Positions 12,155 through 48,714 of a stretch of DNA of 64,000 nucleotides are shown here, piece after piece (position 1 is the stretch's first letter; each line of letters starts with the position of its first letter). The notes under the pieces are model-generated. The model had not been told where the DNA came from, searched no databases, and worked only from the letters and a program-made list of their open reading frames with translations. The stretch is from Nanoarchaeota archaeon SCGC AAA011-G17 (GTDB lineage: Archaea; Nanobdellota; Nanobdellia; SCGC-AAA011-G17): positions 4,871-68,870 of the forward strand of contig AQRL01000036.1 of NCBI GenBank assembly GCA_000402515.1. The letters are read 5' to 3'. The position numbers were made by a program, and so were the translations under genes.

Positions 12155-12865
12155 GTGAAAAAGGTATTATACACGAATAAGGGAGATAAGCTGTACTGGG
12201 AGAAGGGAGATTTGCACACCCAATATGGAATGGTCAAGGAGAAAGACATCAAGCAGGGGAAGATAAAGACCCATATTGGAACCAATCTGAAAGTCTTAGA
12301 TGCTGATTTTCTGGATAAATTAGAGAAGGTAAAGAGGGGTCCTGCATTTATGGTTCCTAAAGATATCGGCTTGATTCTTACTAATACAAGCATCAATAAA
12401 AATTCCAATGTATTAGATGCTGGAACAGGCTCTGGAATTCTGAGCGCTTATTTGTCAAGATTTGTAAAAAGGGTTTACAGCTATGAGAGGAATCCTGAAT
12501 TTTTAAAATTAGCAGAAGAGAATTTTAAAAAGCTTGGAATCAAGAATGTTGAGTTAAAAAATGGAGATGTATATGAAGATATCAAAGAGAATGATCTTGA
12601 CTTAATAACATTGGATTTATTAGAGCCATGGAATGCCTTGAAAAATGCACGCAGAGCCTTAAGAAGCGGGGGGTATATTGCTGTTTATACACCTAATGTC
12701 AGCCAGGTCAGCAGATTTGTTAAGGAGTTGGACAAGAATTCATTTATTTTTATAAAGACTATTGAGGTTATTGAGAGGGAGTGGGTAGTGGATGATTTAA
12801 GAATAAGGCCAAAAAACAGAATGCTGGGACATACTGGCTTCTTAACTTTTGTAAGAAAAATTTGA
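12155..12865 (+). CDS. trmI: tRNA (adenine57/58-N1)-methyltransferase TrmI
   Basis: Gcd14/TrmI pattern (GPAFMVPKD, VLDAGTGSGILSAYL, ALRSGG). Confidence 0.7.
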   Translation: MKKVLYTNKGDKLYWEKGDLHTQYGMVKEKDIKQGKIKTHIGTNLKVLDADFLDKLEKVKRGPAFMVPKDIGLILTNTSINKNSNVLDAGTGSGILSAYLSRFVKRVYSYERNPEFLKLAEENFKKLGIKNVELKNGDVYEDIKENDLDLITLDLLEPWNALKNARRALRSGGYIAVYTPNVSQVSRFVKELDKNSFIFIKTIEVIEREWVVDDLRIRPKNRMLGHTGFLTFVRKI

Positions 12866-12868
12866 TTA
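12836..12868. repeat. 33-bp direct repeat (copy 1) covering the 3' end of trmI; copy 2 at 14098-14130
   Basis: ggcttcttaacttttgtaagaaaaatttgatta vs ggcttcttaacttttgtcagaaagatttaatta (3 mismatches). Confidence 0.8.
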
Positions 12869-14015
12869 ACCAAACAAATTCATAAACCAAGAAAGAATCT
12901 TTTCTAAGAAACCCTTACCAATACATTTATTACTTACACAAACATTACTATCACATTCAAAATTATTATTACATTGCATACTTTCTGTTAATTGTGTTTT
13001 TAGTATTTTATCAATATCACAAAATTCATTCTCTGTCCTAACACCAACAGGGACACAATTGTTACTAGAATCTAAACAACCATTACAATTATTCTCTCCT
13101 TCATTAGAAACTATAGCGCTCTTTTCGCTATTAGTTGTTTCCTCATTAGTAGAAATTGTAGACGTTACATCTGGTGATTTAGAACCAACCATTATCATCA
13201 ACCCCCTTTGTACAAAAACCTGTTTCACCACAAATATTCACATCAGTATAATCACACCATTCTTCATAATAAGTGTCAAAGCTACCATCCAAGATGCAAT
13301 GCTCATCATATCGTGATTCACATGCATAATTTCCATAATTTCCTCCCCTGAATATATCTAAGTAAATCAATTGTTCTCCACTAGTAGATTCATTTGTTGC
13401 ACAATCTTTCACAATTCTATGTAATACATAATAATTATCTTCTTCTATACAAGAACCATCCTTACATCCATTTGAGCAGTATTGTTTAGCATACCATTTC
13501 CCCGTTATATCATCGCATGCCAAAACATAATCCCCTTCACTATCACAGGAATAGCTTCCAGACAAACATTCTTTTGTTTCTTGTGGAAATAATTCTATCA
13601 ACTTATTGACACCAACATTTTCACTTAATATCTCTTTATGTTTTACATTTAATTTATCCAAAATTTTTATAAGTTCTGCTTGAAAAACAAAATGGCTTGT
13701 TGGAGAATGTGAACCAACAATAATGACTGCTTCTCCATTATAAACCAAAAGTGTAACTCTATTATCAAGAGTATTTATATCAATCTCACTAAATAATTTA
13801 GCATAGGTTGATGGAATCTCTCCATATTTTAAAGAACCATCATCATTTTTCATAAGTTGTAAAGAAGCTATTATTTCAGATATAATTTTGGTGTCTGAAG
13901 CAGGACCTAAATCATAAACGCCGATAACAGAAAATGTAGCTATGGTGCTTGTTTCCTCAGCAAAAACAAATGAGCTAAGTAAAATTAACAATATTCCTAA
14001 TACTAATTTTTTCAT
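12866..14015 (-). CDS. Cysteine-rich secreted protein; reading frame broken at a G5/C5 homopolymer (13202-13206), appearing as ORFs 13179-14015 and 12866-13231
   Basis: Signal peptide MKKLVLGILLILLSSFVFA; both ORFs Cys-rich and overlapping by 53 nt in different frames across a C5 run. Confidence 0.5.
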
Positions 14016-14097
14016 CTTAATCCCCTATAAAATAATTATAATCACTAATAAGTTGCTATATAAATCTTTTGGTTCTCTCCAACTTGTTTCATTTTAC

Positions 14098-14130
14098 GGC
14101 TTCTTAACTTTTGTCAGAAAGATTTAATTA
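14098..14130. repeat. 33-bp direct repeat (copy 2)
   Basis: See 12836-12868; recreates the ...GFLTFVRKI* C-terminus as a 61-aa pseudo-ORF. Confidence 0.8.
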
Positions 14131-14161
14131 GATTTATATTTCTTTAGTTTATATAAATAAT

Positions 14162-14581
14162 ATGAAAATTGTTTTAATTGCGTGTGCAAGCAAAAAATTG
14201 TCCAAAAAAACTGAGGCAAGGGATTTATACATAAGCCCATTATTCAAATATAATATTAGATATGCCAAATCATTAAATCCTGATAGTATATTTATTCTTT
14301 CTGCAAAATATGGCTTATTAGAATTGAATGAAGAAGTAGGACCTTATAACCAAACATTAAATAGAATGAATAATGAAGAGATTGTAAAATGGGCGGATGG
14401 AGTTATTAATAAACTAAGTAAGAAAACAGACCTTAAGAATGATGAATTTATTTTTTTAGCAGGAGAAAAATATAGAAAATTTTTGATACCCCATATCTCT
14501 AATTATAAAATTCCTTTAGAAGGGCTCGGGATTGGAAAGCAATTAAAATTCCTGAAAGAGAGGATAAAAGATGAGCAATAA
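14162..14581 (+). CDS. Conserved hypothetical protein (139 aa), first gene of a two-gene module
   Basis: MKIVLIACASKK...ARDLYISPLF...ILSAKYGLL; overlaps next gene by 11 nt. Confidence 0.4.
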   Translation: MKIVLIACASKKLSKKTEARDLYISPLFKYNIRYAKSLNPDSIFILSAKYGLLELNEEVGPYNQTLNRMNNEEIVKWADGVINKLSKKTDLKNDEFIFLAGEKYRKFLIPHISNYKIPLEGLGIGKQLKFLKERIKDEQ

Positions 14582-15209
14582 CTGCAATAAATTACATAAG
14601 TTAGTTAATAATTCAAAGAGATTAAAATTTCCTTTTAAGGAAGAAGATATTCCGCTGAATGGAATCTATATATTATTTGAGAAAGATGAATTTGCTCATA
14701 ATGGTGATAGGATTGTTAGAATTGGAAGCCATACTGGAATAGGTCAATTGAGATCTAGATTAAAACAGCATTTTATTAATGAAAACAAAGACAGGAGCAT
14801 TTTCAGAAAAAATATCGGGAGGGCTCTGCTTAACAAGAGTAAAGATAAGTTTCTTGAACAGTGGGAATTAGATTTAACTTCTAAAAAATCCAAAGAGAAA
14901 AATCTGCATTTAATAGATCTTAGTAAACAAAAAGAAATTGAAAAAAAATTTACAGAGTATATCCAGAATAATTTCAGTTTTATTGTTCTAAAGATAGATG
15001 ACAAGAAAAGAAGGCTTGAGAGTGAGTCTAAACTAATTTCAACTGTTTCATTATGCAGGGAATGCAGGCCATCAAAAAACTGGCTTGGCTTATTCTCTCC
15101 AAAAGAGAAGATAGTAAAGAGCGGGCTTTGGCTGGTTAATGAGCTATACAAAGAGCCATTATCTGATAAAGAAACAGATGAGCTAAAGAATTACTTATTC
15201 AAGTCCTGA
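14571..15209 (+). CDS. GIY-YIG nuclease-family protein with C-terminal extension
   Basis: NGIYILFEKDEFAHNGDRIVRIGSHTGIGQLRSRLKQHF matches GIY...YIG...R..H. Confidence 0.5.
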   Translation: MSNNCNKLHKLVNNSKRLKFPFKEEDIPLNGIYILFEKDEFAHNGDRIVRIGSHTGIGQLRSRLKQHFINENKDRSIFRKNIGRALLNKSKDKFLEQWELDLTSKKSKEKNLHLIDLSKQKEIEKKFTEYIQNNFSFIVLKIDDKKRRLESESKLISTVSLCRECRPSKNWLGLFSPKEKIVKSGLWLVNELYKEPLSDKETDELKNYLFKS

Positions 15210-16078
15210 TAAGCTGAGTTTGCTGCTGTTGCTCCCTCTCCGCATGCTGTTATTATCTGCTTCAAAGAATTATTTGTAATATCACCTGCTGCATAGATTC
15301 CATTAATATTTGTTCTCTGCTGCTTGTCTGCTATAATATAACCTTTTGAATCTGTTTTTATTTTTAATTGTGATATCAATCTCTGGTCGGGTATTGCCCC
15401 AACTTCTATAAATAATCCATCTACTTTTAATTTTTTTCCTGATTTCAGCTCTATGGCTTCGAGGAATTTTTCCCCTTCTAATTTAGCTATATCTTCCCTG
15501 AATATTTGTTTTATTTTTTTCTTACCTTTTAGCTGACTCAGCCATACTGGATCTGCCCTGAATTTATCCCCTCTGTATATCAAATAAACAGTGTCTGCAT
15601 AATCAGCCAGAAGCAATGCTGTTGTTACTGCTCCATTTCCCCCGCCAGCAACTGCAACATTCTTATTCCTAAACAAGGGTCCGTCGCAAGTTCCGCAATA
15701 AGAAATTCCACGACCTAGTAATTCCATTTCCCTTGGTATGTTCAGCTTCTTTCTTTCTGTTCCTGCTGCAAGTATCATCTTCTTTGCTTCAAATGTTTTT
15801 CCTTTTGCTGTTTTAACCTTAAATTTATTTGATATTTTAATTACCTCATCATATATCATTTCTGCATTTAATTTTTTTACATGCTCCTCCATCTTTTTCA
15901 TTAAATCAAATCCAGAAATATCTTCATATGTCGGGAAATTACAGATTTTATGGGCTGTTGTTGCTATCCCTCCCGGAATTTTTGTGATTAGTAAGGTCTT
16001 TAATTTATATCTGGATGCATACATTGCTGCTGTCAGTCCGGCTGGCCCTCCCCCTATTATTATTAGGTCATATTTCAT
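15191..16078 (-). CDS. Thioredoxin-disulfide reductase-like flavoprotein
   Basis: LIIIGGGPAGLTAAMY FAD motif, SYCGTCDG redox-active dicysteine, second GxGxxA NAD(P) motif. Confidence 0.7.
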   Translation of the reverse strand: MKYDLIIIGGGPAGLTAAMYASRYKLKTLLITKIPGGIATTAHKICNFPTYEDISGFDLMKKMEEHVKKLNAEMIYDEVIKISNKFKVKTAKGKTFEAKKMILAAGTERKKLNIPREMELLGRGISYCGTCDGPLFRNKNVAVAGGGNGAVTTALLLADYADTVYLIYRGDKFRADPVWLSQLKGKKKIKQIFREDIAKLEGEKFLEAIELKSGKKLKVDGLFIEVGAIPDQRLISQLKIKTDSKGYIIADKQQRTNINGIYAAGDITNNSLKQIITACGEGATAANSAYQDLNK

Positions 16079-16532
16079 ATTCTTCCCTCAATAATGCATA
16101 TCTTTTCTCATCATGTATTTTTCCTGTTGCTTTTGCTCTTCTGCTTTTTATTTTTGTTCCTTCAAATTTAAATCCCATTTTTTCTATCATTGAATAAGAC
16201 GGCTTATTTTCCACATAAACTCCTGCCTCTACTCTTCTTAGTTTTAATTTATCAAATGCAAAGGAGATTAATTTCTTTAATGCCTCGGTTCCTATACCCT
16301 GCCTCCAGTATTCTTCTCCTATCCAACATCCTAATGATGCAGTGCCCTGATATTTATCAACACTAGATAAAGCCACACAACCAATTACTTTCTTCTCTGA
16401 TTTAAGTTCAATTCCAAGATTATAATTTTTTCTTGGTTTAATCTTTGTCTCTTTTGTACATTCGTTGATAAACTCTTTTGCATCTTTTATATTTAAATCC
16501 CTTAAAATTAATCTTTCTGTTGTTAGTTTCAT
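16068..16532 (-). CDS. GNAT family N-acetyltransferase (RimJ/RimL-like)
   Basis: Acetyl-CoA motif WRQGIGTEALKKLISFAF. Confidence 0.65.
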   Translation of the reverse strand: MKLTTERLILRDLNIKDAKEFINECTKETKIKPRKNYNLGIELKSEKKVIGCVALSSVDKYQGTASLGCWIGEEYWRQGIGTEALKKLISFAFDKLKLRRVEAGVYVENKPSYSMIEKMGFKFEGTKIKSRRAKATGKIHDEKRYALLREEYEI

Positions 16533-16609
16533 ATGTTTAGAATAATACTGTAGTTTTTAAAATTATTCATTAGCAAAGATTTAAAAAGTGTTTTCTCTTT
16601 AAAAAAATT

Positions 16610-18394: not shown

Positions 18395-18678
18395 TATTTA
18401 TTCCCTCTTGATTTATGAACCAAATGGGGGATATCATTTTCCTTTAAACCTATTTTTTCTGCTCTCTTCTTTCCTTCTTTTGCTATCATTTCTAAATCTT
18501 TTATTAACTCTTCTTTAGAAGGAGTCTCTATTTTTTTTAGAATAATAGTATCCTTGGTACCAAAAATTGCAAATGTAGTGCCTTCTTGCATGTTTAATTT
18601 ATTCCTTATGTCTTGAGGAACAACAATCTGTCCTCTAGAGCTCATTTTAGTTATTTCAATTGCCATATTAACCTCCAT
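18394..18678 (-). CDS. AbrB/MazE/SpoVT-family antitoxin-like DNA-binding protein
   Basis: ITKMSSRGQIVVPQDIRNKLNMQEGTTFAIF swapped-hairpin motif. Confidence 0.65.
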   Translation of the reverse strand: MEVNMAIEITKMSSRGQIVVPQDIRNKLNMQEGTTFAIFGTKDTIILKKIETPSKEELIKDLEMIAKEGKKRAEKIGLKENDIPHLVHKSRGNK

Positions 18679-18766
18679 TCTTATTATAAGAAAGTAAGAT
18701 TAACTTATTTATAAACTTTTCTGTTTGGATAGTTTTTTAAAAGCAGATTTCTTTTATTTTTATGTG

Positions 18767-18841
18767 GGCTTGTAGCTCAGCTTGGATAGAGCACCACACT
18801 CCTAATGTGGGGGTCGAGGGTTCGAATCCCTCCAGAGGCTT
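18767..18841 (+). tRNA. tRNA-Arg(CCU)-like partial duplicate with non-pairing acceptor stem (pseudo-tRNA or att remnant)
   Basis: 60 nt (18773-18832) identical to tRNA at 20708-20782, but 5' GGGCTTG cannot pair with 3' CAGAGGC. Confidence 0.5.
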
Positions 18842-18985
18842 TAGATTATAGAAGATTTTATTGTAAAGCCATTTAATGCCTCTAAAATTGAAGAGACTAT
18901 GAAAAAGATTTTGAAGTAGATAACTTAATTATTAGTTTTATTAAGAGAACGAAAGATTTAAATATAAGTTCTATTTAAAATACTT

Positions 18986-20248
18986 ATGTCAAATATAATT
19001 GATACTATAAAATTACTCAATCCTTGGTGGGAAGATGAAAGAGTTAGCGAGGAGCTTGCCAAACAGTATAAAAGAAGCTTTTTTGATAAAATACAAGAAT
19101 TTAAGAAATATAAGCAAATAATTATTCTTACAGGATTAAGGAGAGTTGGAAAAACCACCCTTATCTATCAAACAGTAAAAGAGCTGCTTAATGGAACTGA
19201 CTCAAAAAGAATTTTTTATTTTAGTTTTGACAAGGAGGTTGATGATTTAGTAGAACTTTTTGAAAATTACAAAGAGCTAACGGGAATAAACTACAAAAAA
19301 GAAAAAATTTTTGTTTTTTTTGATGAAATAACCCGATTTAAAAAATGGGCTATTGAACTGAAATTAATTTATGACTCCTGTCCTAATATAAAATTTTGTA
19401 TTTCATCGTCAAGCAGCATTAATTTGGAAGAAGATGCTATAAAAAATCTTGCGGGGAGATATTTCCTAATTAATATAAGCCCTTTGAGCTTTAAAGAATT
19501 TTTAGAATTAAGGGGTAAGGAAAAAATGATTAAAAATTATAGGCTCTACTCAAGGGAAATAAAAAAAGAGTTTTTTTCTTATTTATTGAGGAGCTTTCCA
19601 GAAACAGTAAATTGGGATAATGAACTAGTTATCAAGGATTATCTTAGAACAACAATTATAGATAAGATAATTAAATCAGATCTTCCAGAAAGATTCAACA
19701 ATATTAATAAAGAATTACTGTATAATCTCCTAGAATTATTTTATAAGGAGCCAGGATTTTATCTTGATTATGATAATTTATCAAAAAATTTAAGGATAAG
19801 TAAGAACACACTATACACTCACATTTTCTATCTTGAATTCTGCTATCTAATAAGAATTGTGAAAAATTTCAGGCCCAGCACACTCTCAACAAGCAGAAAG
19901 CTACAAAGAGTTTATCCTTATTGGTGGAATTTGGTATATTGCTATGGAGAAAATAATGACAAAATTTTAGAGTCTTTTGTCTTAAGCATAATAGACGGAA
20001 AGTATTATTGGAGGAATTTAGAAAAAGAAATTGATTTCTTAAAAATTGAAGGCAGGAATATTCTGCCTATTGAAGTTAAAAACAGAGAAAGAGTTGAAGA
20101 GCGAGATTTGAATACATTAAAATTATTTATGAGCAAGTATAAATTAAAAAAATCTCTTCTTTTATATCTTGGAGATGAAAAAATCAGAGATTATGATAGT
20201 GGAAAGATTGAATTTATTCCATTCTGGAAATGGCTCTTAACAGAATAA
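18986..20248 (+). CDS. AAA+ ATPase with DUF4143 C-terminal domain (COG1373 family)
   Basis: Walker A LTGLRRVGKTT, Walker B FFDEI, DUF4143-like C-terminal region. Confidence 0.65.
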   Translation: MSNIIDTIKLLNPWWEDERVSEELAKQYKRSFFDKIQEFKKYKQIIILTGLRRVGKTTLIYQTVKELLNGTDSKRIFYFSFDKEVDDLVELFENYKELTGINYKKEKIFVFFDEITRFKKWAIELKLIYDSCPNIKFCISSSSSINLEEDAIKNLAGRYFLINISPLSFKEFLELRGKEKMIKNYRLYSREIKKEFFSYLLRSFPETVNWDNELVIKDYLRTTIIDKIIKSDLPERFNNINKELLYNLLELFYKEPGFYLDYDNLSKNLRISKNTLYTHIFYLEFCYLIRIVKNFRPSTLSTSRKLQRVYPYWWNLVYCYGENNDKILESFVLSIIDGKYYWRNLEKEIDFLKIEGRNILPIEVKNRERVEERDLNTLKLFMSKYKLKKSLLLYLGDEKIRDYDSGKIEFIPFWKWLLTE

Positions 20249-20249
20249 C

Positions 20250-20624
20250 ATGGGAACAACAACTTTTTATTTAAGGCACAATGATATTGGGAGAAAATTA
20301 AGTGAGATGACTAAAGAAGAATTAGATAAACTTGATAATCTTTCTCCATATAAAAAAGATAACTCTGCTTTTGGATGGTTTGTTCCATTTGAACTCCATA
20401 ATGGAAATGTATATCTTCTAATTTTCTGGAAAGGAAGACTTATTAGATTAGACGAGGCACCAAATAAGCTTAATAGAAAATATTATAGCAGATTAGCAGG
20501 AAAAACTACTAAGGAACATGAGTGGACTGTTCTAAAGAAATTTCTATTAAATGAGATAGAGAAATTGGATAAAGAGTTTAAAAAATCCGTAAGAAGTAAA
20601 CAAATTCATAAATCAAAAGAATAA
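20250..20624 (+). CDS. Hypothetical protein
   Basis: 124-aa ORF immediately downstream of the ATPase. Confidence 0.3.
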   Translation: MGTTTFYLRHNDIGRKLSEMTKEELDKLDNLSPYKKDNSAFGWFVPFELHNGNVYLLIFWKGRLIRLDEAPNKLNRKYYSRLAGKTTKEHEWTVLKKFLLNEIEKLDKEFKKSVRSKQIHKSKE

Positions 20625-20707
20625 AAATAAATATCACTAAGAGAAAGATATTTATAAAAAAGAAAAAGAAGAAATACTTAAAAAACTATAAGCTAGCTCT
20701 TAATTAT

Positions 20708-20782
20708 GCCCGGGTAGCTCAGCTTGGATAGAGCACCACACTCCTAATGTGGGGGTCGAGGGTTCGAATCCCTTCTCGGGCG
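20708..20782 (+). tRNA. tRNA-Arg (anticodon CCU)
   Basis: Acceptor GCCCGGG/CTCGGGC (one G-U), D-arm GCTC-AGCTTGGATA-GAGC, anticodon arm CCACA-CTCCTAA-TGTGG, T-arm GAGGG-TTCGAAT-CCCTT; 75 nt. Confidence 0.85.
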
Positions 20783-20785
20783 CTT

Positions 20786-21720: not shown

Positions 21721-23145
21721 TTATTTTCTATATCTGTAAAAAAGAATTATTATAAACAAATTAACTATTAATACAAAGGCAGAAGTAAATGGCAGAAGGG
21801 ATATTCCTACGCATGGAACCTCTGTCTGGATTTCACTGTCAACAATACCATTTGTCATTACTATTTGTTTTAGTATCTGCTTGCCGTCAACACACGGGCC
21901 ATTTTCATAAGAAATGATTGTTCCATTTCCAAAATCAGAACTGCACTGATCCCAGCAGCCTATAAACGGCTGGTTTGCTGTTTCCTGAGGGCAATCCAGT
22001 GTAAAACCATAGTAATTTCCAACACCATTTATCCTGTCTAAGCCTGTATCTTCCAATATTTTATCACAACATTGGGCAGTTGATTTTTCCCCAGCTATTT
22101 CACAGACAAGAACATTATCACATAAATCACCTATACCGTCACTATCTGCATCTGCCTGATCTGGATTTGGAATAAAGGGGCAGTTGTCGATATCATCCAT
22201 TATACCATCACCATCTAAATCACCAAGGCATCTTCTTGTCCCCAAAATTTCGTTTACAGAACATAATACTCCTGCTTTACAACTATCTTGCTGGCCCACA
22301 CAATCATTACAACCACAGCCCTCCCCCTCTTCACATATCTCATTTTGAGTTATACAACCTTTTACTCCTCCACCACCACAATCTGGATCTTTTGGAGTAC
22401 ATCCACAAATACAACTGTCTCCTGCATTACATGTTGCTCCTCCACATCCAATTTGATTTTTAGATGAACAGTAAGAAGCAGAACAATCGGGATCTGGTAC
22501 TGGACAACCTCGGGCACAGCCATTTCCTGAACTGCATGTAATTCCAGAACAATCTGGGTCTGATAATGGAGCACAATCTATTAAACAGCCATCTCCTGGA
22601 TTGCATGTTGCTCCTCCGCAGCCTTGCTGATTTAGATAAGAGCAATAAGAAGCACCACAATCTGGATCTACAGGATTACCTCCAAGAGCACATCCATCTC
22701 CTGCACTACAGGTAATATCTTCACAAAAAAATCTACATGTCCCATCAGTACAAAGAACCTGCCCATCTTCACAAAGACCCCTACACAAAACACCAGATGG
22801 GTCTAATTTATTATTTTCATTTATGCTGGCTTTACATTCTCCAGGGCTACATTGATTATTATCCAACTGCCAAGAGCATTCTGTTTGTGATGTACAGATA
22901 CATTTTGCACAGGGGTTTACTGTTACTAATGTATTTGGTATTGCTGGGGGATAAAAAACATCTATTGTTGTATTACACCCTGCATAGCCTATTTCTTCAC
23001 TTGAAAGACAGTTTGGATTATCCAATGGACAGGCACAGACATTCAAAGAAGGATAACAGCCTGCTCCACAACAGATTGCATCTGAGGAAGGAACCAGAAT
23101 TATTAATCCTGAAATAAATATGAAAAAAAATAATAGTTTTTTCAT
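21721..23145 (-). CDS. Cysteine-rich secreted protein with repeated Cys modules, a thrombospondin type-3 Ca-binding repeat and C-terminal TM anchor
   Basis: Signal peptide; repeats ...CGASYCS..QGCGGATCN.GD.C...DPDC...; DLDGDGIMDDIDNCPFIPNPDQADADSDGIGDLCDN; C-terminal FVLIVNLFIIILF. Confidence 0.6.
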   Translation of the reverse strand: MKKLLFFFIFISGLIILVPSSDAICCGAGCYPSLNVCACPLDNPNCLSSEEIGYAGCNTTIDVFYPPAIPNTLVTVNPCAKCICTSQTECSWQLDNNQCSPGECKASINENNKLDPSGVLCRGLCEDGQVLCTDGTCRFFCEDITCSAGDGCALGGNPVDPDCGASYCSYLNQQGCGGATCNPGDGCLIDCAPLSDPDCSGITCSSGNGCARGCPVPDPDCSASYCSSKNQIGCGGATCNAGDSCICGCTPKDPDCGGGGVKGCITQNEICEEGEGCGCNDCVGQQDSCKAGVLCSVNEILGTRRCLGDLDGDGIMDDIDNCPFIPNPDQADADSDGIGDLCDNVLVCEIAGEKSTAQCCDKILEDTGLDRINGVGNYYGFTLDCPQETANQPFIGCWDQCSSDFGNGTIISYENGPCVDGKQILKQIVMTNGIVDSEIQTEVPCVGISLLPFTSAFVLIVNLFIIILFYRYRK

Positions 23146-26303: not shown

Positions 26304-26425
26304 TGTTTTATGTAATCAACATGGGTTACTAATATGTATAACTTCCGCTGATTCTTAAATTTTTATTATTTTTTAAAACAATAGTTTATTGCTGGAGTTG
26401 AGGCAGAGCTAATTGCAATACCAAT

Positions 26426-27601
26426 TTACTTATTAGTTAAATGCTTTGACAAATTTATAATATTAGTAAAGATTATTTCGCAATTTTCCTCTTTTATTAT
26501 CTTTTCTTCGCCTTTGTAAAATACAACTAATGCCTTTCTTGGTTTATATTCTTTAATAAATGATAATAACCCCCTCCCTATTTTTTTCGGGTTTGTCAGT
26601 TTTACTTCAATAGGCAAAACTCCCTCTTTTTCTATAACAAAATCAACTTCTGATCCTGATTTTGATCTCCAGTATTTTGGAATAAGGCTGGTTTTTATAA
26701 GTTCATCAAACACATAATTCTCAAACAATGCTCCATCAATTTCAGAATCAAACTTCTTTGAAGTATAATTTCTTATACCAGAATCAATAAAATATATTTT
26801 TGGCTGTTTCGTTATCTCTTTAAGCTTATTCCTAAAAAAAGGGATTGCTGCAAAAACTAAGTTGCTCTTTTCTAAGGCGCATAAATATTTTTTTATTGAC
26901 TGAAACGAGAGGTTAATGTTTTTTGAGATTTCATTATAAGAAATCAAGCCTCCGACAGACAATGAGAGATACCTTGTGAATTCTTCTAGAGATTTTATAT
27001 TTTCTATTGAAAAGTTCTGCGCAACATCTTTTAGCAGCATTATTTCATATAAATCTTTTAGAATTGTTTTTTTAATTTCTAACTCGCTGTTAGCCACCAC
27101 CATCGGATAGCCTCCATAGACTGCATGCTCCCAGACAATTCTTTCTGCTATCTGTTTATTAAGCTCTTTATGGTGCATTGCTTTGGTAAACTCATTTAAT
27201 GAAAGGGGGTACAATCTTAAGATTGACACTCTTCCCACAAGATAGGACAAAACCTGCTTTCCTAAAATTAATTCAGATGAAGAAGTAATCCAAAGCTTAT
27301 GGCCTTTATCTGCCAAATATTTTAAATTTCTTCCAGCTTCCTTGCAGTAATGAACTTCATCTAAAATTGTAACCTCATTGCTTTCTACATACTGCCTTTC
27401 AAATTTCTTGACATCTTCCTCAAATAAGTTTCTTACATCAGGATCATCAAAAAGAACATATTTTGATTTTAGAGTTTTTGCCTGTTCTTTTAAGAAAGTT
27501 GTTTTGCCTGCCTGCCTTGGCCCGACTAAGGCGATTATTGGATAAATTTCTTTAATCTTGTCAAATTGCTCTTTTATCTCTCGTTCAATGTATTCTGCCA
27601 T
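26426..27601 (-). CDS. AAA+ ATPase with DUF4143 domain (second member of COG1373-like family)
   Basis: Walker A LVGPRQAGKTTFLK; paralogous architecture to 18986-20248. Confidence 0.65.
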   Translation of the reverse strand: MAEYIEREIKEQFDKIKEIYPIIALVGPRQAGKTTFLKEQAKTLKSKYVLFDDPDVRNLFEEDVKKFERQYVESNEVTILDEVHYCKEAGRNLKYLADKGHKLWITSSSELILGKQVLSYLVGRVSILRLYPLSLNEFTKAMHHKELNKQIAERIVWEHAVYGGYPMVVANSELEIKKTILKDLYEIMLLKDVAQNFSIENIKSLEEFTRYLSLSVGGLISYNEISKNINLSFQSIKKYLCALEKSNLVFAAIPFFRNKLKEITKQPKIYFIDSGIRNYTSKKFDSEIDGALFENYVFDELIKTSLIPKYWRSKSGSEVDFVIEKEGVLPIEVKLTNPKKIGRGLLSFIKEYKPRKALVVFYKGEEKIIKEENCEIIFTNIINLSKHLTNK

Positions 27602-27634
27602 AATTATCTATAATCATCTGGATTTATAAATTTT

Positions 27635-27699
27635 ACTATTATTAATGTTTAGTTTAATTTTAGTATGACTATTATTAATGTTTAGTTTAATTTTAGTAT
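27635..27699. repeat. Tandem repeat, 2 x 32 bp with 33-bp period, in the upstream region of the ATPase gene
   Basis: actattattaatgtttagtttaattttagtat repeated exactly, separated by g. Confidence 0.8.
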
Positions 27700-27863
27700 T
27701 TTAGGTGGGTTATAATCTTTTTTCCTTTCTTCTCATCTTTTGTTGCACTTATAAGGCAATCTCTGACTTCTTTTGTTGTACGATATCATGACATTTGTCA
27801 CGGTATCACACAATATGACAACATTGGGTTAAATTTATATATAAGTTTTCTTTCTTAATAGAT

Positions 27864-32075: not shown

Positions 32076-32125
32076 AGCTTTTTACAGTGTTTTTAGAGTA
32101 TTTAAATATTATGGTTTGTTACTAC
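32052..32125. repeat. ~73-bp direct repeat (copy 1) covering the start codon/promoter of gene 30765-32075; copy 2 at 33713-33785
   Basis: tttagttattaagccctctttcatagctttttacagtgttttt...atttaaatattatggtt...gttactac shared, ~90% identity. Confidence 0.8.
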
Positions 32126-32209
32126 TTAAATAGAATAAATTAAGGAAGAAGAAAGATTTATATAGTATAATCAATTAACTAATAGTATCAAATTTGATAA
32201 TATAGGTTT

Positions 32210-32923
32210 ATGAAAAGTATAATATTGTTAAAGGAACTTGAAAAATATAAAGTATTTAATAATAAGGTAGTTAGAGACATAATAAAAAAAGATCATAACT
32301 ATACTAGGCTGCTTATATATCGGCTTAAAAAGAGCAACTTAATTATAGAAATAGAGAAAAACAAATACACAGTACACGAAGATCCATTAATTATAGCAGA
32401 TAGTATGGTGTGGCCATCTTACCTTTCCTGCTGGACTGCTTTGAGATTTCATAACTTAACAGAACAGCTTCCAAATACAATCTTTGTTATAACAACAAGG
32501 TCTAGAAAAAACAATAAAATAGTATTTAATAATAATAAAATCATTTTTATAAAAGTAAAACAAAAATATTTTTTTGGGTATAATAAAGAAAATTACAGGG
32601 GTTATGATACATTTATAGCTGACCCAGAAAAAGCCATAATAGATTCAGCATTATTTAAGAAGATATCTTTATCTGAGTTATACACCATTATTAAAAATAA
32701 TTTAAATTCAATAAATGCTGCTTTGTTTATTGATTATTTATTAAGAATAAAAAATAAAACCCTGATAAAAAGATTTGGAATTTTATTTGATAAGCTTAGA
32801 TTAGACTTTTATGACAAATTAAAATCCTTTATTAATAATAAATATATTATATTGGATTATGCATTGCCCAAGAATAAAAACAAAAACATGAAATGGAAGG
32901 TAATTGAAAATGTTAGATATTAA
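32210..32923 (+). CDS. abiEi: AbiEi-family antitoxin/transcriptional regulator
   Basis: Upstream partner of AbiEii with 20-nt overlap; C-terminal domain similar to AbiEi. Confidence 0.6.
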   Translation: MKSIILLKELEKYKVFNNKVVRDIIKKDHNYTRLLIYRLKKSNLIIEIEKNKYTVHEDPLIIADSMVWPSYLSCWTALRFHNLTEQLPNTIFVITTRSRKNNKIVFNNNKIIFIKVKQKYFFGYNKENYRGYDTFIADPEKAIIDSALFKKISLSELYTIIKNNLNSINAALFIDYLLRIKNKTLIKRFGILFDKLRLDFYDKLKSFINNKYIILDYALPKNKNKNMKWKVIENVRY

Positions 32924-33680
32924 TGAACTAAAGAGAATTTCTGAGCTAAAAAGAATTTCATTGATAAATACAGAAAAAGATTATATCCAGGATATTATTT
33001 TATTCAGCCTTTATTCTAATATCGGAAGAGAATTTATATTTAAGGGAGGAACTTGCCTTTATAAGGTGTATAAGTTAAATAGATTTAGTGAAGATTTAGA
33101 TTTTACACTAATAAAAAATGCAGATACCAAAAATATTTTTAATAAATTAATTTATGATTTAAAACTTCTTAATATTAATGGAAATATTAAAGAGATTAAA
33201 GAATATAAAAATGAAATTAATGTGAGATTAATCTTCAATGGCCCCCTCTACAGGGGAAGAAAGGAAGAGCAGTGTTTTATTCCTATAAATATAAGCCTAA
33301 AAGAAAAAGTTCTTATAGAACCAAAAAATGAAATGATAATTTCTATGTACAAAGAAATTCCAAATTTTGAAATTTTCATTATGGATGAACAAGAAATACT
33401 GGCAGAAAAATTCAGAGCTATATTAAGCAGGGAAAAACCAAGAGATATTTATGATGCATGGTTCTTATTAATAAAGAAAAATATAAGCCCCGATATAAAG
33501 ATAATCAATAAAAAGTTATCTCTATATAATCTTAAATTTAACTTGAATAAATTTATAGATAGCGTTGAAAAAAAGAGAGGCTTATGGAATTTAGATCTTA
33601 AAAATTTAATTATAGGAGAGCTTCCTGATTTTGATGAAATTAAGAAAGAAATTATTTCTAAATTAAAAGAAAATCATTAA
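32904..33680 (+). CDS. abiEii: AbiEii/AbiGii nucleotidyltransferase toxin (DUF1814)
   Basis: FKGGTCLYKVYKLNRFSEDLDFT matches the KGGTAL...RFSEDLDF nucleotidyltransferase signature. Confidence 0.8.
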   Translation: MKMLDINELKRISELKRISLINTEKDYIQDIILFSLYSNIGREFIFKGGTCLYKVYKLNRFSEDLDFTLIKNADTKNIFNKLIYDLKLLNINGNIKEIKEYKNEINVRLIFNGPLYRGRKEEQCFIPINISLKEKVLIEPKNEMIISMYKEIPNFEIFIMDEQEILAEKFRAILSREKPRDIYDAWFLLIKKNISPDIKIINKKLSLYNLKFNLNKFIDSVEKKRGLWNLDLKNLIIGELPDFDEIKKEIISKLKENH

Positions 33681-33712
33681 AATTAGCTTGCATTTTTTAG
33701 TTTCTTTCCTAA

Positions 33713-33785
33713 TTTAGTTATTAAGCCCTCTTTCATAGCTTTTTACAGTGTTTTTCAACTATTTAAATATTATGGTTGTTACTAC
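33713..33785. repeat. ~73-bp direct repeat (copy 2)
   Basis: See 32052-32125. Confidence 0.8.
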
Positions 33786-33846
33786 TAATAGTTAATGAAT
33801 AAAGGAAAGAGAAAGGTTTAAATAACAAAAGTAATAAATAATTTTT

Positions 33847-34056
33847 ATGACAGAAACAATAACAATGCCAAGAGGAGAATTTAAGAAATTAATTTCTGAT
33901 GTAGAAATAGTCATAAACGATGTAGAATCAATTCTCTCTAGTGAAGACAAACTTACTAAAAAAAGGATTGATGATATAGAATCCGGAAAAGTAAAGGGTA
34001 AAACTGAAAAAGAATTAGATGAGTATCTTAAGAATAGAGGGATAAGAGTTGGCTAA
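33847..34056 (+). CDS. Small antitoxin-like protein (69 aa)
   Basis: Short charged ORF immediately followed by a RelE-like remnant. Confidence 0.35.
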   Translation: MTETITMPRGEFKKLISDVEIVINDVESILSSEDKLTKKRIDDIESGKVKGKTEKELDEYLKNRGIRVG

Positions 34057-34185
34057 TTGGGAGATAAAAGAGCACCCAGATTTCTTTAAGGACTTAGACA
34101 GATTAAATAAAAGTGAATTAGAAATATTTTATAAAAAGAAAGAAAAAATCAAGAAAAATCCAGACTGGGACAAAAGTTAATAAAA
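34057..34185 (+). pseudogene. RelE/ParE-like toxin remnant (no ATG; stops after ~42 codons)
   Basis: Hand translation WEIKEHPDFFKDLDRLNKSELEIFYKKKEKIKKNPDWDKS* resembles the RelE N-terminus (W.I.F...F.KDLKKL...NP..G). Confidence 0.4.
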
Positions 34186-34421: not shown

Positions 34422-35264
34422 ATGAAATATCTGGATTTTAGTAAAAAAGACCAAATTTCATTTATGAGGTTAGTTAAAGAACGAAGTAATCTTAAATGGG
34501 AAAAAATTGCACATTTTCTTGGTATCCATAGAAGTATGATTTTTTTCTATTTGAATGGTAAATCAAAGATTCCATATGAAAATTATAAAAAATTATGTAG
34601 TTTAGCAAAAATAAAACAATCACACAAATCATATGTTTTTATAAAAAATAAAATACAACCAATAAATAAAATTAATATGATTGATAATAATCTTGCTGAA
34701 TTATTAGGTATTCTTGCAGGAGATGGTCATATTTCCAATATAAATTATGAAGTTTGTGTTAGTGGGCATATGATTCTAGATAAAGAATATATCAACAAAA
34801 ATGTAGTTTTCCTTTTTGAAAAGTTATTTGGTCTTGACTCTAAATTAAAAATATACAAACCATATACCCATCTTAGATGCTGTGTTAATTCAAAATTACT
34901 CATAGAATATTTATCAAAAGAATTTAATTTACCAGTTGGAAAAAAGAAGGGGAATCTACATATTCCCAAACAAATAATTGAAGATAAATTACTATTAAAA
35001 TATTATATACGTGGTCTTTTTGATACTGATGGTAGTGTATATTTTAGACGCAAAAAAGACATTGTTGTATCAATAATTAGTGGAGATTTATTATTTTTGA
35101 ATGAGGTAAAAAATGCATTAAAAATTTTAGGATATAATCCATGCGTAAGTGGAAAAAACCTTTATCTTTATAAAAAAGAAGAGGTAAAAAGATTTTTTTC
35201 TGAAATTAATCCTATAAATAAAAAACATTTGGATAGATATTCTAATTTTTTGAAACTGCGTTAA
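34422..35264 (+). CDS. Free-standing LAGLIDADG homing endonuclease
   Basis: Two LAGLIDADG motifs: LAELLGILAGDGHIS and LKYYIRGLFDTDGSV. Confidence 0.8.
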   Translation: MKYLDFSKKDQISFMRLVKERSNLKWEKIAHFLGIHRSMIFFYLNGKSKIPYENYKKLCSLAKIKQSHKSYVFIKNKIQPINKINMIDNNLAELLGILAGDGHISNINYEVCVSGHMILDKEYINKNVVFLFEKLFGLDSKLKIYKPYTHLRCCVNSKLLIEYLSKEFNLPVGKKKGNLHIPKQIIEDKLLLKYYIRGLFDTDGSVYFRRKKDIVVSIISGDLLFLNEVKNALKILGYNPCVSGKNLYLYKKEEVKRFFSEINPINKKHLDRYSNFLKLR

Positions 35265-42245: not shown

Positions 42246-42279
42246 ATGATTATATAAATTGATATTTCTTAGAAAAATT

Positions 42280-43449: not shown

Positions 43450-43498
43450 CTATTAGCTGTCAATAATATTTATATTTAAATTCGGTTGGTTTTATTTT

Positions 43499-44634: not shown

Positions 44635-44674
44635 ACAGATAAAATTTAATTATTAGTATTAATAAAATTTTCTA

Positions 44675-45199: not shown

Positions 45200-45540
45200 T
45201 TTTTAATAATCCTCGTTTCTTTTAAAATTTCATCCATTACACTATCAATCAAATCAAAATTTATATTTTTATAGCCTTTGGATTCTCTTTTCTTAAGCTC
45301 CTTTTTCACTTTATTCCTAACCATTTCTTTTATTTCTTCAGCATCTTTCTCTGGAAATTCACTCTTGGGATTAATTTTTTCCCTATATCTTTTAGCAATC
45401 TCCAAACTGGTTAGAAACTCCCTATCATAATGCTTCCTAATATCCTCCTCATCTATGGCTTTTTCAAGAATTCTATGGATAACTGAATTAGAAACATTAC
45501 CAACAAAAATGTCAATCAGCTTATTCCTATTTTGACTCAT
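45196..45540 (-). CDS. Small charged protein overlapping the upstream nucleotidyltransferase fusion by 14 nt (candidate partner)
   Basis: 114 aa; no clear motif. Confidence 0.3.
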   Translation of the reverse strand: MSQNRNKLIDIFVGNVSNSVIHRILEKAIDEEDIRKHYDREFLTSLEIAKRYREKINPKSEFPEKDAEEIKEMVRNKVKKELKKRESKGYKNINFDLIDSVMDEILKETRIIKK

Positions 45541-46285: not shown

Positions 46286-46333
46286 GTTACGTAATAGTAC
46301 GTTAAAATATATAAATGTTTCTATTCTCTAAAA

Positions 46334-47785
46334 TTAGTAGGGCTTGGCAAGATAAACAACTTCTTTTGCCTCTTTATTACAGACAATGCATTTTCCAGAG
46401 GCTTTTTCCTTTACATCACTTCTTATCCCGCGGACTGTCAATTCTGTTTCTTTCTCTATTTTTTCGGCGCATTTCTCACCATCTTTGTCTATTGAGCAGA
46501 AATTAACTCTAACAAATTTACCATTTATTTTTTTCAGCTCTGAAAAGTTTTTAACATTGATTATGCTGTTCTTGAATTCATCATCTGCTTTTTTGATGAG
46601 ATTCTTTGTTAGTTCCTCTCCGACTTTTTCAATCTTCTTAACTAAATCCTTGAGCTTTACTTTTTCTTTTTTTCTTGTATCTCTTCTGAATAGTGTAACT
46701 TCTGAACTTTTGGCTTCTTTTGGACCTAGTTCTAACCTTATTGGAATGCCTTTCATTTCCCAGTGATAGAATTTTTCACCCATATTTTCTTCCCTTAAAT
46801 CAAGATAAACTCTAAACTTCTCAGCTAGTTTTTTCTGAAGATCTTTTGCTTTCTTCAGCACTTCTTTTTCCTTACCTTTAATCAGCACAGGAACAATTAC
46901 AATCTGGAAGGGAGCAATTTTGAAGGGAAAGATTAAGCCATTATCATCTCCATGTATTGAAATCAAGGAAGCAAATATTCTTGAGATAGCTGGACCATAA
47001 CAGGTAATAAAGCAGTATTTATCCTCTCCATTTTTATCTTTGAATTTTACATCAAAGGGCTTTGAAAAATTTTGTCCAAGAAGATGAGTAGAGGGCTGCT
47101 GGATAACTTTTCCATCCGGCATTAGGGTATCTGCTGCATAGGTATTTACTGCTCCTGCAAATTTGTCCCACTGCGGCCTTTTGAAGAATATAAAAGGAAT
47201 TCCAAATTCATCATGAAGCATTTCCTTTGTTGTCTCCATATCTTCTTTTACCTGTGCTTCTGCTTCTTCTAATGAAGAGAAGGCATCATGGGCTTCTATC
47301 CAGTAGAATTCTCTAGAGCGGATAAATGGACGTGTAGCTTTTGTCTCATATCTCCATACCTGGGCTCTTTGATAGGTTTTAAATGGTAAATCCTTATAGC
47401 TCCTGATCCATAATGAGAACATCTGATAAAAGGCTGTTTCTGATGTTGGGCGTAAAGCTAAAGGTTCTTCTAATTTCTGGTTATCCCCATAGCTTGTTAC
47501 CCAAAATACATCTGGTGAGAAGCCTTTCACATGTTCTTTTTCTTTTAAAAAATTTGATTCTGGAATTACAGCGGGATACCAGTAGGGCAAATGTCCCTTT
47601 TCTTGTAATTTTTTTTCATACAAGGAATACATATTTTCCATTGTTAAGACTGAGAAGGGCTGAAAGACCAAGAATCCTTTTATATTGTACCTTAAATCTG
47701 CCAATTCTGCTCTCTTGACAATTTCAGTATACCACTCTGAGAAATTTTTATTCTTGTCAATATTGAAGGTAACTTTTTCTTGCAT
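46334..47785 (-). CDS. proS: Prolyl-tRNA synthetase, archaeal/eukaryal type
   Basis: 483 aa; class II motifs (RPTSETAFYQMF, FRAELT-like SREFYWIEAHDAF). Confidence 0.85.
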   Translation of the reverse strand: MQEKVTFNIDKNKNFSEWYTEIVKRAELADLRYNIKGFLVFQPFSVLTMENMYSLYEKKLQEKGHLPYWYPAVIPESNFLKEKEHVKGFSPDVFWVTSYGDNQKLEEPLALRPTSETAFYQMFSLWIRSYKDLPFKTYQRAQVWRYETKATRPFIRSREFYWIEAHDAFSSLEEAEAQVKEDMETTKEMLHDEFGIPFIFFKRPQWDKFAGAVNTYAADTLMPDGKVIQQPSTHLLGQNFSKPFDVKFKDKNGEDKYCFITCYGPAISRIFASLISIHGDDNGLIFPFKIAPFQIVIVPVLIKGKEKEVLKKAKDLQKKLAEKFRVYLDLREENMGEKFYHWEMKGIPIRLELGPKEAKSSEVTLFRRDTRKKEKVKLKDLVKKIEKVGEELTKNLIKKADDEFKNSIINVKNFSELKKINGKFVRVNFCSIDKDGEKCAEKIEKETELTVRGIRSDVKEKASGKCIVCNKEAKEVVYLAKPY

Positions 47786-47805
47786 TAGCTTGAATATAAG
47801 ATAGG

Positions 47806-47857
47806 GATATTTAATTCTTTCGGAGAGTATATTTTAAAGGAAATAAATGCTTATAAA
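47806..47857. promoter_or_regulatory. 52-bp element with BRE/TATA-like TTTAAAGG...TTATAAA (copy 1), duplicated exactly at 48663-48714
   Basis: Identical 52-mer gatatttaattctttcggagagtatattttaaaggaaataaatgcttataaa in two divergent intergenic regions. Confidence 0.6.
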
Positions 47858-48297
47858 TGAGTTTAAATAAATGGGGTGTTATGACAAATAAAAGAGAAAT
47901 GAAAAAAATAGAAGATAGAATTTTCAGGCTATTAAGTAAAAAAGGTCTTGAAGGTGTTATGGATGAGATGGAATCTGAAATAAAGAAAAAAAATGAAGAA
48001 CTTATTCTTGATGAGTATACAGTCCTTCTTGCTCTTATAGAGGGTAAATTGATGGGTGATTGTTCTCCTGAATTCCAAATAAATAAGGAGTTAAGCAACC
48101 TTAGATATAAAAGAGGAGTTGGATTGTGTTACGGAGAAGGAGAAAATAAAATAACTATATTGGATGCTGCCAAACTTTATACAAGAAGGAAGGGTGATTC
48201 AGATATTAAGTATGGGATGAGAAGATTAGCACGGGACTTTGATGATGCAGTTAGTAACAGTATTCTGAGCACAATAGATCCTAATGCTGATAAATAA
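47857..48297 (+). CDS. Hypothetical protein
   Basis: 146-aa ORF (alternative start M9 at 47881). Confidence 0.35.
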   Translation: MSLNKWGVMTNKREMKKIEDRIFRLLSKKGLEGVMDEMESEIKKKNEELILDEYTVLLALIEGKLMGDCSPEFQINKELSNLRYKRGVGLCYGEGENKITILDAAKLYTRRKGDSDIKYGMRRLARDFDDAVSNSILSTIDPNADK

Positions 48298-48310
48298 TCA
48301 CAAATATTGT

Positions 48311-48643
48311 TCAATACAACTTTCCGCCAATTGGAACTTCTCTTTCTGGCTTAATCAAAACACATTCCCCATTTTTATCAGGAACTCCAAGAGTTAAAAC
48401 TTCAGATGCTGCAGGCCCAATCTGTCTTGGCGGGAAATTTACAACACAAAGAACTAATTTTCCCTTCAGACTTTCTTTGGAATAATTCTTAACAAGCTGA
48501 GCGCAGGATTTCTTTATTCCAATTTCTTTTCCCAAATCAATTTTTAATTTGTATGACGGCTTTCTTGCTTCTGGAAAATCCTCTGCTTCTATAATCTTTC
48601 CAACACGAATATCCAATTTCTGAAAATCTTCAAATGCTGCCAT
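48311..48643 (-). CDS. tRNA-binding protein (CsaA/Trbp111-like OB-fold)
   Basis: [32 protein letters not shown] matches the tRNA-binding domain. Confidence 0.7.
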
Positions 48644-48662
48644 AAATAAACTGTAAAATAAA

Positions 48663-48714
48663 GATATTTAATTCTTTCGGAGAGTATATTTTAAAGGAAA
48701 TAAATGCTTATAAA
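48663..48714. promoter_or_regulatory. 52-bp BRE/TATA-like element (copy 2)
   Basis: Identical to 47806-47857. Confidence 0.6.

Follow-up and report, generated by a model that had tools for sequence, protein, structure and literature searches.

How do cassettes of one or two genes come to lie between short direct repeats of functional host sequence in an archaeal genome? The question is raised by a 64,000-nucleotide stretch (the window) of Nanoarchaeota archaeon SCGC AAA011-G17, in which four small cassettes are each bracketed by a repeat of the 3′ end of trmI (cassette 1), a tRNA-Arg body (cassette 2), the 5′ end of a dockerin-like gene (cassette 3) or the promoter beside the prolyl-tRNA synthetase (ProRS) gene proS (cassette 4). 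In DPANN archaea, whose genomes are tiny and gene-dense, recognisable mobile-element genes are few and CRISPR is scarce, yet the repertoires of defence and surface proteins are patchy. A sequence-only reading of the window had attributed the brackets to a site-specific recombinase acting in trans, or to an uncharacterised mechanism of cassette capture. Comparison with relatives shows the four repeat pairs to be, in all likelihood, scars left at the junctions when small accessory cassettes were acquired on four independent occasions. Each cassette appears as a presence/absence or replacement polymorphism among these relatives, the cargo is horizontally mobile accessory material, mostly predicted defence or toxin–antitoxin (TA) genes, and the duplicated segment is always a predicted functional resident sequence at the insertion point. 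Our confidence that real insertions of mobile accessory cassettes are seen here is far higher than the probability of about 0.5 that we give to the mechanism favoured below, in which integrase-less islets with att-like flanks would enter by Campbell-type or homology-anchored recombination and pass a selection filter.

The repeat pairs were obtained with a repeat finder and re-measured by self-BLAST, and both placed them where the sequence-only reading had seen them. The pair of cassette 1 (12836-12868 and 14098-14130) is 33 nt long and 30/33 identical, with a spacing of 1262 bp; that of cassette 2 (18772-18831 and 20714-20773) is 60 nt long and 100% identical, with a spacing of 1942 bp. These two lengths had been given correctly. 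The other two, given as 73 and 52 bp, were slightly off: the pair of cassette 3 (32041-32116 and 33702-33777) measures 76 nt at 92% identity and a spacing of 1661 bp, its homology extending with indels to 32164 and 33824 (126 alignment columns, 86.5%), and that of cassette 4 (47797-47857 and 48654-48714) measures 61 nt at 95% and a spacing of 857 bp. When a pair was required to have E≤1e-4 and to lie 300-4000 bp apart, four pairs qualified in the window versus none in each of 30 second-order Markov shuffles. A background of 1.16 Mb from related DPANN loci yielded 10 qualifying pairs, so that 0.55 would be expected in 64 kb (post hoc Poisson P=0.0025), and the density in the window is thus about seven times that of the related loci. 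Certain background pairs differ in nature, such as the one in locus L082, which consists of the conserved N-termini of two paralogues. No inverted pair met the same criterion in either the window or the background.

The window rests on a single-cell assembly amplified by multiple displacement amplification (MDA). It is 100% identical to contigs AQYW01000072 and AQYW01000079 of assembly GCA_000380905.1, which share an overlap of ~57 bp at 33876-33932, and is a merged record with zero Ns. The repeats are neither an assembly nor a single-cell amplification artefact, because only one of the four pairs is perfect, no pair is split between two NCBI contigs, and L094, an independent metagenome-assembled genome (MAG), also repeats the promoter core of cassette 4. 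Genes in the window are densely packed, with abutting stop codons and overlapping adjacent open reading frames (ORFs). The nearest matches of its ProRS, at 58-67% identity, are MAGs labelled Woesearchaeota, Pacearchaeota, Nanoarchaeota and similar DPANN names, by which the host is placed, as far as this marker tells, among DPANN archaea of the Woesearchaeota/Pacearchaeota type. Sister lineages were found through a metagenome scan with the PIN/KH ATPase encoded between cassettes 1 and 2 and through look-ups of flanking proteins; one of them, L097, is a second single-cell genome. None of 80 loci from GTDB species representatives (ProRS 58-67%) had neighbours in common with the window, and they served only as the repeat-density background. 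Exact-protein look-ups for closer strains, made at the tRNA site (Fic and the AbrB-like gene) and at the dockerin and ProRS sites, returned the source genome only.

Junctions and allelic states of the four cassettes

Cassette 1 follows trmI (12155-12865, plus strand), which encodes a tRNA m1A58 methyltransferase of the GCD14 type (Pfam GCD14). The first repeat copy (12836-12868) is the functional end of this gene, comprising its last 30 nt and 3 nt beyond, and the second (14098-14130, also on the plus strand) is an orphan remnant of that end. The insert between them (12869-14097, genes on the minus strand) holds two ORFs, one of 278 aa with a signal peptide (13179-14015) and one of 121 aa rich in cysteine (12866-13231), which overlap by 53 nt in different frames and could represent a single gene for a secreted protein, interrupted by a frameshift or by an error in sequencing. 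Pfam gave no match for these secreted, Cys-rich proteins, and a TATA-like promoter belonging to the cassette lies at its right end. Two relatives lack the insert. In L008 (~77% nucleotide identity), trmI is directly followed by a DUF6884/GIY-YIG gene pair, and its single trmI end aligns to both copies in the window, indicating that the window holds a 1262-bp insertion bounded exactly by the 33-bp repeat. The much closer L002 (96-99% identity) diverges at the same base after trmI, with 135 bp of unrelated sequence up to a thioredoxin reductase gene. Its trmI is 98.9% identical to that of the window and it is without cassette 1, while the two 33-bp copies in the window already differ at three sites; two of the three changes in the orphan copy are derived relative to L008. 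It is suggestive that the copies differed from birth. The alignment gave no clear case of microhomology at the junctions. To the right of the cassette lies the counterpart of the L008 pair, DUF6884 plus GIY-YIG_3 (14162-15209, plus strand), which PADLOC assigns to the candidate defence system PDC-M57A/B (E=3e-60 and 5e-98). This pair is itself strain-variable: besides its place directly after trmI in L008, it is absent from L002 and has another place and orientation in L013.

At cassette 2, the two copies belong to tRNA genes in different states. Copy 1 (18766-18842, plus strand) is a pseudo-tRNA-Arg(CCT) with three of its seven acceptor pairs mismatched (50 bits), and copy 2 (20708-20783, plus strand) is an intact tRNA-Arg(CCT) with the perfect acceptor stem GCCCGGG/CTCGGGC (64 bits). 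The insert between the 60-nt cores (18832-20713, plus strand) consists of 94 nt of filler, an ATPase unit described below, an ORF of 124 aa (20250-20624) and the 5′ flank of the incoming tRNA. It is absent from L011 (81-88% identity), where only one tRNA-Arg(CCT) is present, preceded by the sequence that lies upstream of window copy 1 and followed by that downstream of copy 2. According to L011, the resident-type acceptor strands are GGGCCTG/CAGGCCC. Copy 1 retains the upstream flank of the resident, together with the 5′ strand GGGCTTG and the 60-nt body; its homology to the L011 tRNA stops at 18835, past which it continues AGGC..., resulting in the 3′ strand CAGAGGC, a third type. The acceptor stem of copy 2 differs from the L011 allele by compensated changes, and resident homology resumes right after its 3′ end. 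An entire alternative tRNA-Arg thus arrived with the insert, and at no time were the two copies duplicates of a single resident sequence. Since copy 2 carries a foreign, compensated acceptor stem, a pure target-site duplication is excluded for cassette 2, and the rule that adjacent resident sequence is duplicated, which the sequence-only reading had taken to be general, fails here.

Other features of the tRNA site were noted. A 21-mer running from the tRNA core into the odd 3′ strand was considered as a sign of a virus or plasmid source, but matches only unrelated phage tRNAs. GCCTCT, the complement of part of CAGAGGC, recurs ~40 nt downstream in the filler (18833-18885), a recurrence that could be fortuitous or could go back to an earlier att structure resembling a tRNA. 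Directly upstream of the pseudo-tRNA lies a gene for an AbrB/MazE-like antitoxin (18402-18723), which is present in L009 and replaced by ~25 bp in L011; these two relatives share one groundwater sample.

Cassette 3 is located upstream of a resident gene for a dockerin-like secreted protein (30765-32075, minus strand), the first 35 nt and promoter of which lie inside repeat copy 1 (32041-32164 with the indel homology, core 32041-32116, plus strand). This copy holds back-to-back promoters. The cargo (32210-33680, plus strand) is an AbiE pair, a predicted type IV TA and abortive-infection system, whose two adjacent ORFs overlap: AbiEi at 32210-32923 (PADLOC E=6e-42) and AbiEii at 32904-33680 (PADLOC E=5e-65, Pfam E=2e-27). 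The GC content of the insert is 23.6%, versus 31.6% for the window. Repeat copy 2 (33702-33824, plus strand) is joined to a remnant of the dockerin gene, the whole spanning 33683-33824; the remnant comprises 17 codons on the minus strand (33683-33736), reading MKEGLITKLGKKLKNAS up to a stop codon, so that the second copy still encodes MKEGLITKLGKK and then ends early. In L097, where the gene is 81% identical, an MNT/HEPN pair stands in place of AbiEi/AbiEii and adjoins the same promoter module, of which a partial inverted copy is found on the other side of the gene. Compared with L097, the remnant copy carries most of the differences, at its two ends, and the functional copy has one clustered change. 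Reciprocal mosaicism of donor and recipient sequence was considered for this site, but no clean single crossover against L097 was evident, and decay of the remnant plus one clustered change fits equally well.

Directly after repeat copy 2 comes an ORF of 69 aa followed by an overlapping one of 43 aa (33847-34180), and the NCBI contigs end inside this gene. Neither ORF has a Pfam match, and the exact-protein look-up found the 69-aa ORF absent from the records. As a guess from gene size and order, they could be a small antitoxin/toxin pair with a truncated toxin.

In cassette 4, repeat copy 1 (47797-47857, plus strand) starts 12 nt upstream of the ATG of the resident ProRS gene (46334-47785, minus strand) and is a bidirectional promoter, with CCGAAAGAATTAAATA on the minus strand toward ProRS and TATATTTTAAA on the plus strand toward an ORF of 146 aa. 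Its 16-nt core is TTTAATTCTTTCGGAG. The cargo (47857-48643) consists of this ORF (47857-48297, plus strand) and, on the minus strand, a gene for a protein with a tRNA_bind domain (48311-48643). Repeat copy 2 (48654-48714, plus strand) starts 11 nt upstream of the tRNA_bind ATG and is also upstream of an ORF of 129 aa (48737-49126). A tandem gene duplication was rejected here: the 146-aa and 129-aa proteins downstream of the 61-bp copies are unrelated. In L095 and L096 (ProRS 77% identical), the whole segment between ProRS and the next conserved gene is absent. In L094 (ProRS 95%), the same two cargo genes are present in swapped order, with TTTAATTCTTTCGGAG at three junctions. The core thus occurs at five cassette junctions in two strains, between which the gene order is permuted. 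In the window ATATTTAATTCTTTCGGAGAG is confined to cassette 4, and among all fetched loci it was found in L094 only; the 16-nt core coincides with a promoter made up of a transcription factor B recognition element (BRE) and TATA box.

Two further ideas about this core were not borne out. As a viral marker, it gave 41 scattered single matches in IMG/VR, about the number that a rough estimate expects by chance. One excision and reintegration at the core, converting the window arrangement into that of L094 or the reverse, would not reproduce the junctions observed. A third and partial copy of the promoter core also occurs in L094 where two genes end convergently, a position that precludes a promoter role. 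Furthermore, at 1275-1745 of L094 (minus-strand view), a gene for 126 aa occupies the place of the 129-aa gene and is bracketed by a direct repeat of ~17 bp, AAGTTTAAAGGTATTnGT.

Taken together, the sequence-only reading had rightly named the repeated sequences at all four sites and was right that they delimit inserted, strain-variable cassettes: L008 and L011 provide empty alleles of cassettes 1 and 2, respectively, that break at the repeats, and cassettes 3 (L097) and 4 (L094-L096) are variable. Local tandem duplication with no variation in cargo, which would have spoken against that reading, is not what is seen: L097 has a different TA pair, and cassette 4 is absent from L095 and L096 and reordered in L094.

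Shared machinery and the mobile PDC-S01 unit

No integrase or transposase domain was detected in any window gene with Pfam data or in the scanned ORFs across the 64 kb, in agreement with the sequence-only reading. Hallmarks of casposons or transposons are likewise lacking in the window: there are no terminal repeats and no transposase domain, and the duplication lengths are not fixed (33, 60, 76-126 and 61 nt). As a candidate for a shared recombination core, ATTAGCTTG adjoins two of the repeats, but the same was seen in 33 of 100 shuffles, and the only shared 9-mer is at chance level. The repeats do not form hairpins of the attC kind; single-stranded DNA folding gave z values of -0.57, +0.54 and +0.85 for cassettes 1, 3 and 4; the repeat of cassette 2 is a tRNA body. 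With no core motif, no hairpins, lengths from 33 to 126 nt, other window insertions bounded by just 8 bp or by no repeat, and a whole alternative tRNA brought in at cassette 2, a single trans-acting site-specific recombinase or a new capture machine is unsupported. The cassettes carry their own BRE/TATA promoters. Donor loci for cassettes 1, 3 and 4 were not found among the loci looked up, NCBIfam gave no name for any cargo protein, and Rfam found only the two tRNAs in the window.

The ATPase of cassette 2 offers a view of mobility at the level of a single gene. Its ORF (18986-20248) matches Pfam AAA_14 (E=7e-32) and DUF4143 (E=2e-9), as well as the PADLOC model PDC-S01 (E=3e-51), and is predicted to be a candidate defence gene. 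DUF4143/COG1373 is listed in the PD-(D/E)XK superfamily (PMC3424549), and most PDC candidates still await experimental validation (PMC12988326). The protein has about 35 distinct 90%-identity clusters at 81-91% amino acid identity, whereas for ProRS from this genome one cluster stands at 95%, the next at 77%, and others at 72% and below. Three contexts of ATPase homologues that were looked up (L105, L106/L107 and L108) are unrelated neighbourhoods with no tRNA nearby. Their common part is the promoter plus ORF alone, a unit of ~1.31 kb (18926-20239 in the window, plus strand) that is 85-91% identical at the nucleotide level in the three unrelated contexts; the 124-aa ORF is outside it. Nucleotide homology begins at GAGAACGAAAGATTTAAATAT, ~55 nt upstream of the ATG, and stops ~12 nt before the stop codon, with ragged ends and filler that differs from context to context. 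In L105, a different 33-bp repeat (88%, spacing 1610 bp) encloses the unit along with other filler of 65 and 202 bp, and no bracket surrounds the unit in L106 or L108. Judged from these alignments, the ATPase gene is demonstrably mobile between lineages. IMG/VR contained no relatives of the ATPase or of AbiEii.

A second PDC-S01 gene (26426-27601, minus strand) lies in a block of 1448 bp (26380-27826) that is absent from L097, where 12 bp take its place. The insertion is clean, and direct repeats do not flank it.

A far-reaching possibility is that PDC-S01/COG1373 is a selfish, self-mobilising gene, whose AAA-ATPase/PD-(D/E)XK protein would cut at loosely defined sites and thereby favour insertion of its own promoter and ORF unit and, in trans, of the neighbouring small cassettes, with long and variable target duplications. 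We regard this as quite improbable; the window holds two copies of the gene. If true, selfish PDC-S01 would represent homing-like mobility with neither integrase nor transposase, and would account for the bracketed islets as well as for the wide, patchy archaeal spread of the family.

Possible routes of cassette entry

In the mechanism that we favour, incoming DNA would carry its own short target-like segment, be it the body of a tRNA or a conserved gene end or promoter module. It would enter by Campbell-type recombination through the common segment, or be anchored there by homology with its far end joined illegitimately. Host homologous recombination over 30-130 bp could be the agent, as could homology-facilitated illegitimate recombination or an integrase no longer, or never, encoded nearby. 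One donor-derived and one recipient-derived copy would then flank the insert, and in a compact genome selection would retain only those insertions whose second copy restores the gene end, the tRNA or the promoter. Such a filter would make the architecture look designed, leaving a dedicated capture system unneeded. At cassette 2, the most informative of the four, incoming DNA with its own homology is seen in the form of the foreign tRNA allele. The other three speak less strongly; the copies at cassette 1 differ at 3 of 33 positions, and the pattern at cassette 3 is ambiguous.

Several points weigh against this mechanism. Its duplication step is reconstructed from the products, as no circular intermediate, donor locus or recombination enzyme was seen, and decay of an initially perfect duplication fits cassettes 1, 3 and 4 about as well. 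A length of 33 bp is short for homologous recombination. The tRNA junctions fit no clean single reciprocal crossover, and the presence of pieces of three acceptor-stem types calls for multiple events. Integrases could be encoded in the genome beyond the 64 kb scanned. Finally, the sevenfold enrichment in repeat pairs is post hoc, on a window picked because it looked unusual.

A competing idea is that of classical integrative elements, captured or reduced to remnants resembling cis-mobilisable elements (CIMEs), with tyrosine or SSV-type integrases encoded elsewhere or lost and the repeats representing attL/attR cores in a tRNA, a gene 3′ end and promoters. Cassette 2 looks like a textbook integrase product, one complete and one partial tRNA flanking an island (PMC9897764), cassette 1 duplicates a gene 3′ end, as islands with att sites frequently do, and the recurrence of TTTAATTCTTTCGGAG at permuted junctions of two strains is the pattern expected of site-specific shuffling. 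It is at the tRNA site and at the 16-nt core of cassette 4 that this explanation is strongest. However, not even a fragment of an integrase gene lies in or beside the cassettes or elsewhere in the 64 kb, four unrelated att sequences would need several integrases, and the inserts measure merely 0.86-1.9 kb. A single attP×attB exchange fails at the tRNA, where the host-type 3′ strand CAGGCCC is missing and element-type strands stand on both sides of the right copy. In addition, the ATPase unit has no fixed ends and a different filler in each context, and the 16-nt core is confined to this lineage and coincides with a promoter. We therefore consider integrase remnants a possible but rather unlikely source of the set as a whole. 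Target-site duplication during repair seems less probable still: a foreign linear fragment would be joined at a staggered double-strand break with filled long overhangs, or template switching akin to microhomology-mediated break-induced replication would resume 30-130 bp behind the break. Variable repeat lengths and the lack of a motif suit it, as do the variable filler travelling with the ATPase unit, the new 33-bp bracket in L105 and the concentration of derived changes in the orphan copies of cassettes 1 and 3, which decay predicts. A perfect tandem duplication at 27635-27699 (a 33-bp unit with 32 identical nt, one spacer base and nothing else between the copies) shows that such duplications arise in this genome; it is found upstream of the second PDC-S01 gene, 34 nt from its start. 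Against repair, the acceptor strands that flank the 60-nt core, foreign and compensating each other, are decisive for cassette 2, cassette 1 shows no evident junction microhomology, and copies differ by 5-14% although a 98.9%-identical strain is without cassette 1.

That there was no insertion at all, only local tandem or segmental duplication with divergence, or an artefact of single-cell amplification or assembly, is contradicted by the data and scarcely credible. The MDA-based assembly, the seam of two contigs within the window and the paralogue N-termini at L082 give it some ground. It is opposed by the empty-site alleles in independent metagenomes, by the lack of paralogy between the genes downstream of the 61-bp copies, by cargo that is compositionally foreign and present elsewhere, and by the same imperfect, same-contig pairs and independently repeated promoter core that speak against an artefact.

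Known systems resemble the cassettes in part. Archaeal islands flanked by a partial and a complete tRNA include PYG1 of Pyrococcus yayanosii, with 44-bp repeats (PMC9897764). Cassette 2 shares with them a complete and a non-functional tRNA-Arg, a 60-bp identical core, an empty relative with a single tRNA, and defence cargo. Unlike such islands, which span tens of kb, it is 1.9 kb long and has no integrase fragments; its complete tRNA is the foreign one and the resident copy is broken, and its pieces of three acceptor-stem types make a single attP×attB exchange insufficient. Displacement arrays of Rhs, CDI (contact-dependent growth inhibition) and Vibrio cholerae type VI secretion system (T6SS) loci contain orphan 3′ ends and immunity genes and arise by homology-facilitated illegitimate recombination (PMC5361080). 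As in the window, modules enter beside a conserved anchor, leave displaced remnants and produce mosaic loci, with neither a dedicated integrase nor a specific site involved; their parallels here are the remnants of the trmI end and of the dockerin gene (17 codons) and the mosaic segment beside ProRS. Those arrays are bacterial and use long conserved gene repeats, whereas the anchors here are 33-126 bp at four unrelated archaeal loci, including a tRNA and promoters, and neither natural transformation nor another DNA-uptake route is known from this organism.

Integron cassettes are similar in being small units of mostly one or two genes, and the gene order on the ProRS side varies between strains with a short core at each junction. 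The differences are that no IntI-like integrase is present, the repeats are locus-specific copies of adjacent resident sequence and not hairpin attC sites, and the window cassettes have their own promoters and form no array at a single attI. DPANN archaea are reported to be enriched in AbiE, SoFic and PDC candidates (PMC12988326), and the cargo families in the window match that set. The islets described there share these families and their patchy occurrence (PMC12988326); that literature describes distribution, to which the present analysis adds base-level junctions, empty sites and the 1.31-kb promoter plus ORF unit of PDC-S01.

The repeat brackets are a real but fairly ordinary scar of horizontal gene acquisition. 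The window supplies base-level examples of the uptake of one- and two-gene cassettes in DPANN genomes, with function restored by the duplicated copy, and an example of a unit of an abundant, uncharacterised family, PDC-S01, moving between lineages with no mobility gene. Should cassettes enter by short-homology recombination, the brackets set a natural lower bound of ~30-60 bp on the homology sufficient in this group; should an integrase act in trans, the brackets are its att sites. In both cases, the junctions offer ready markers for strain-level gene flux in metagenomes.

Further insertions, repeats and accessory genes

The neighbourhood is rich in accessory genes, including PDC-M57, the second PDC-S01 gene, Fic, the AbrB/MazE-like gene and an MNT/HEPN-like pair. 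Other insertions in the window have an 8-bp repeat at their borders or none. A GNAT acetyltransferase gene (16068-16532) is a presence/absence polymorphism of 454 bp that is absent from L002. It is inserted exactly between the start codon of the thioredoxin reductase gene and its promoter, and is bounded by an 8-bp repeat, TTTCATAT, which contains both start codons.

The other repeats of the window reflect coding paralogy, as in two genes for MacB/FtsX permeases that share a 300-nt stretch at 70% identity (2964-3263 and 4611-4910), and Cys-rich domain repeats occur internally (22374-22713) in a TSP3-like secreted protein of 474 aa. Two LAGLIDADG genes were noted: a free-standing ORF with helix-turn-helix (HTH) and LAGLIDADG parts, resembling a homing endonuclease, in a stretch of 24% GC to the right of cassette 3 (34422-35264), and an ABC ATPase gene (~7117-9297) with an intein containing a LAGLIDADG domain.

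A like architecture with a structured repeat was seen outside this lineage. In L083, a distant relative within DPANN, a direct repeat of 40 bp (12231-12270 and 13193-13232, 92.5% identical) encloses a VapB/VapC (PIN) pair of 962 bp; the repeat holds a hairpin with a 7-bp stem (z = -2.7).

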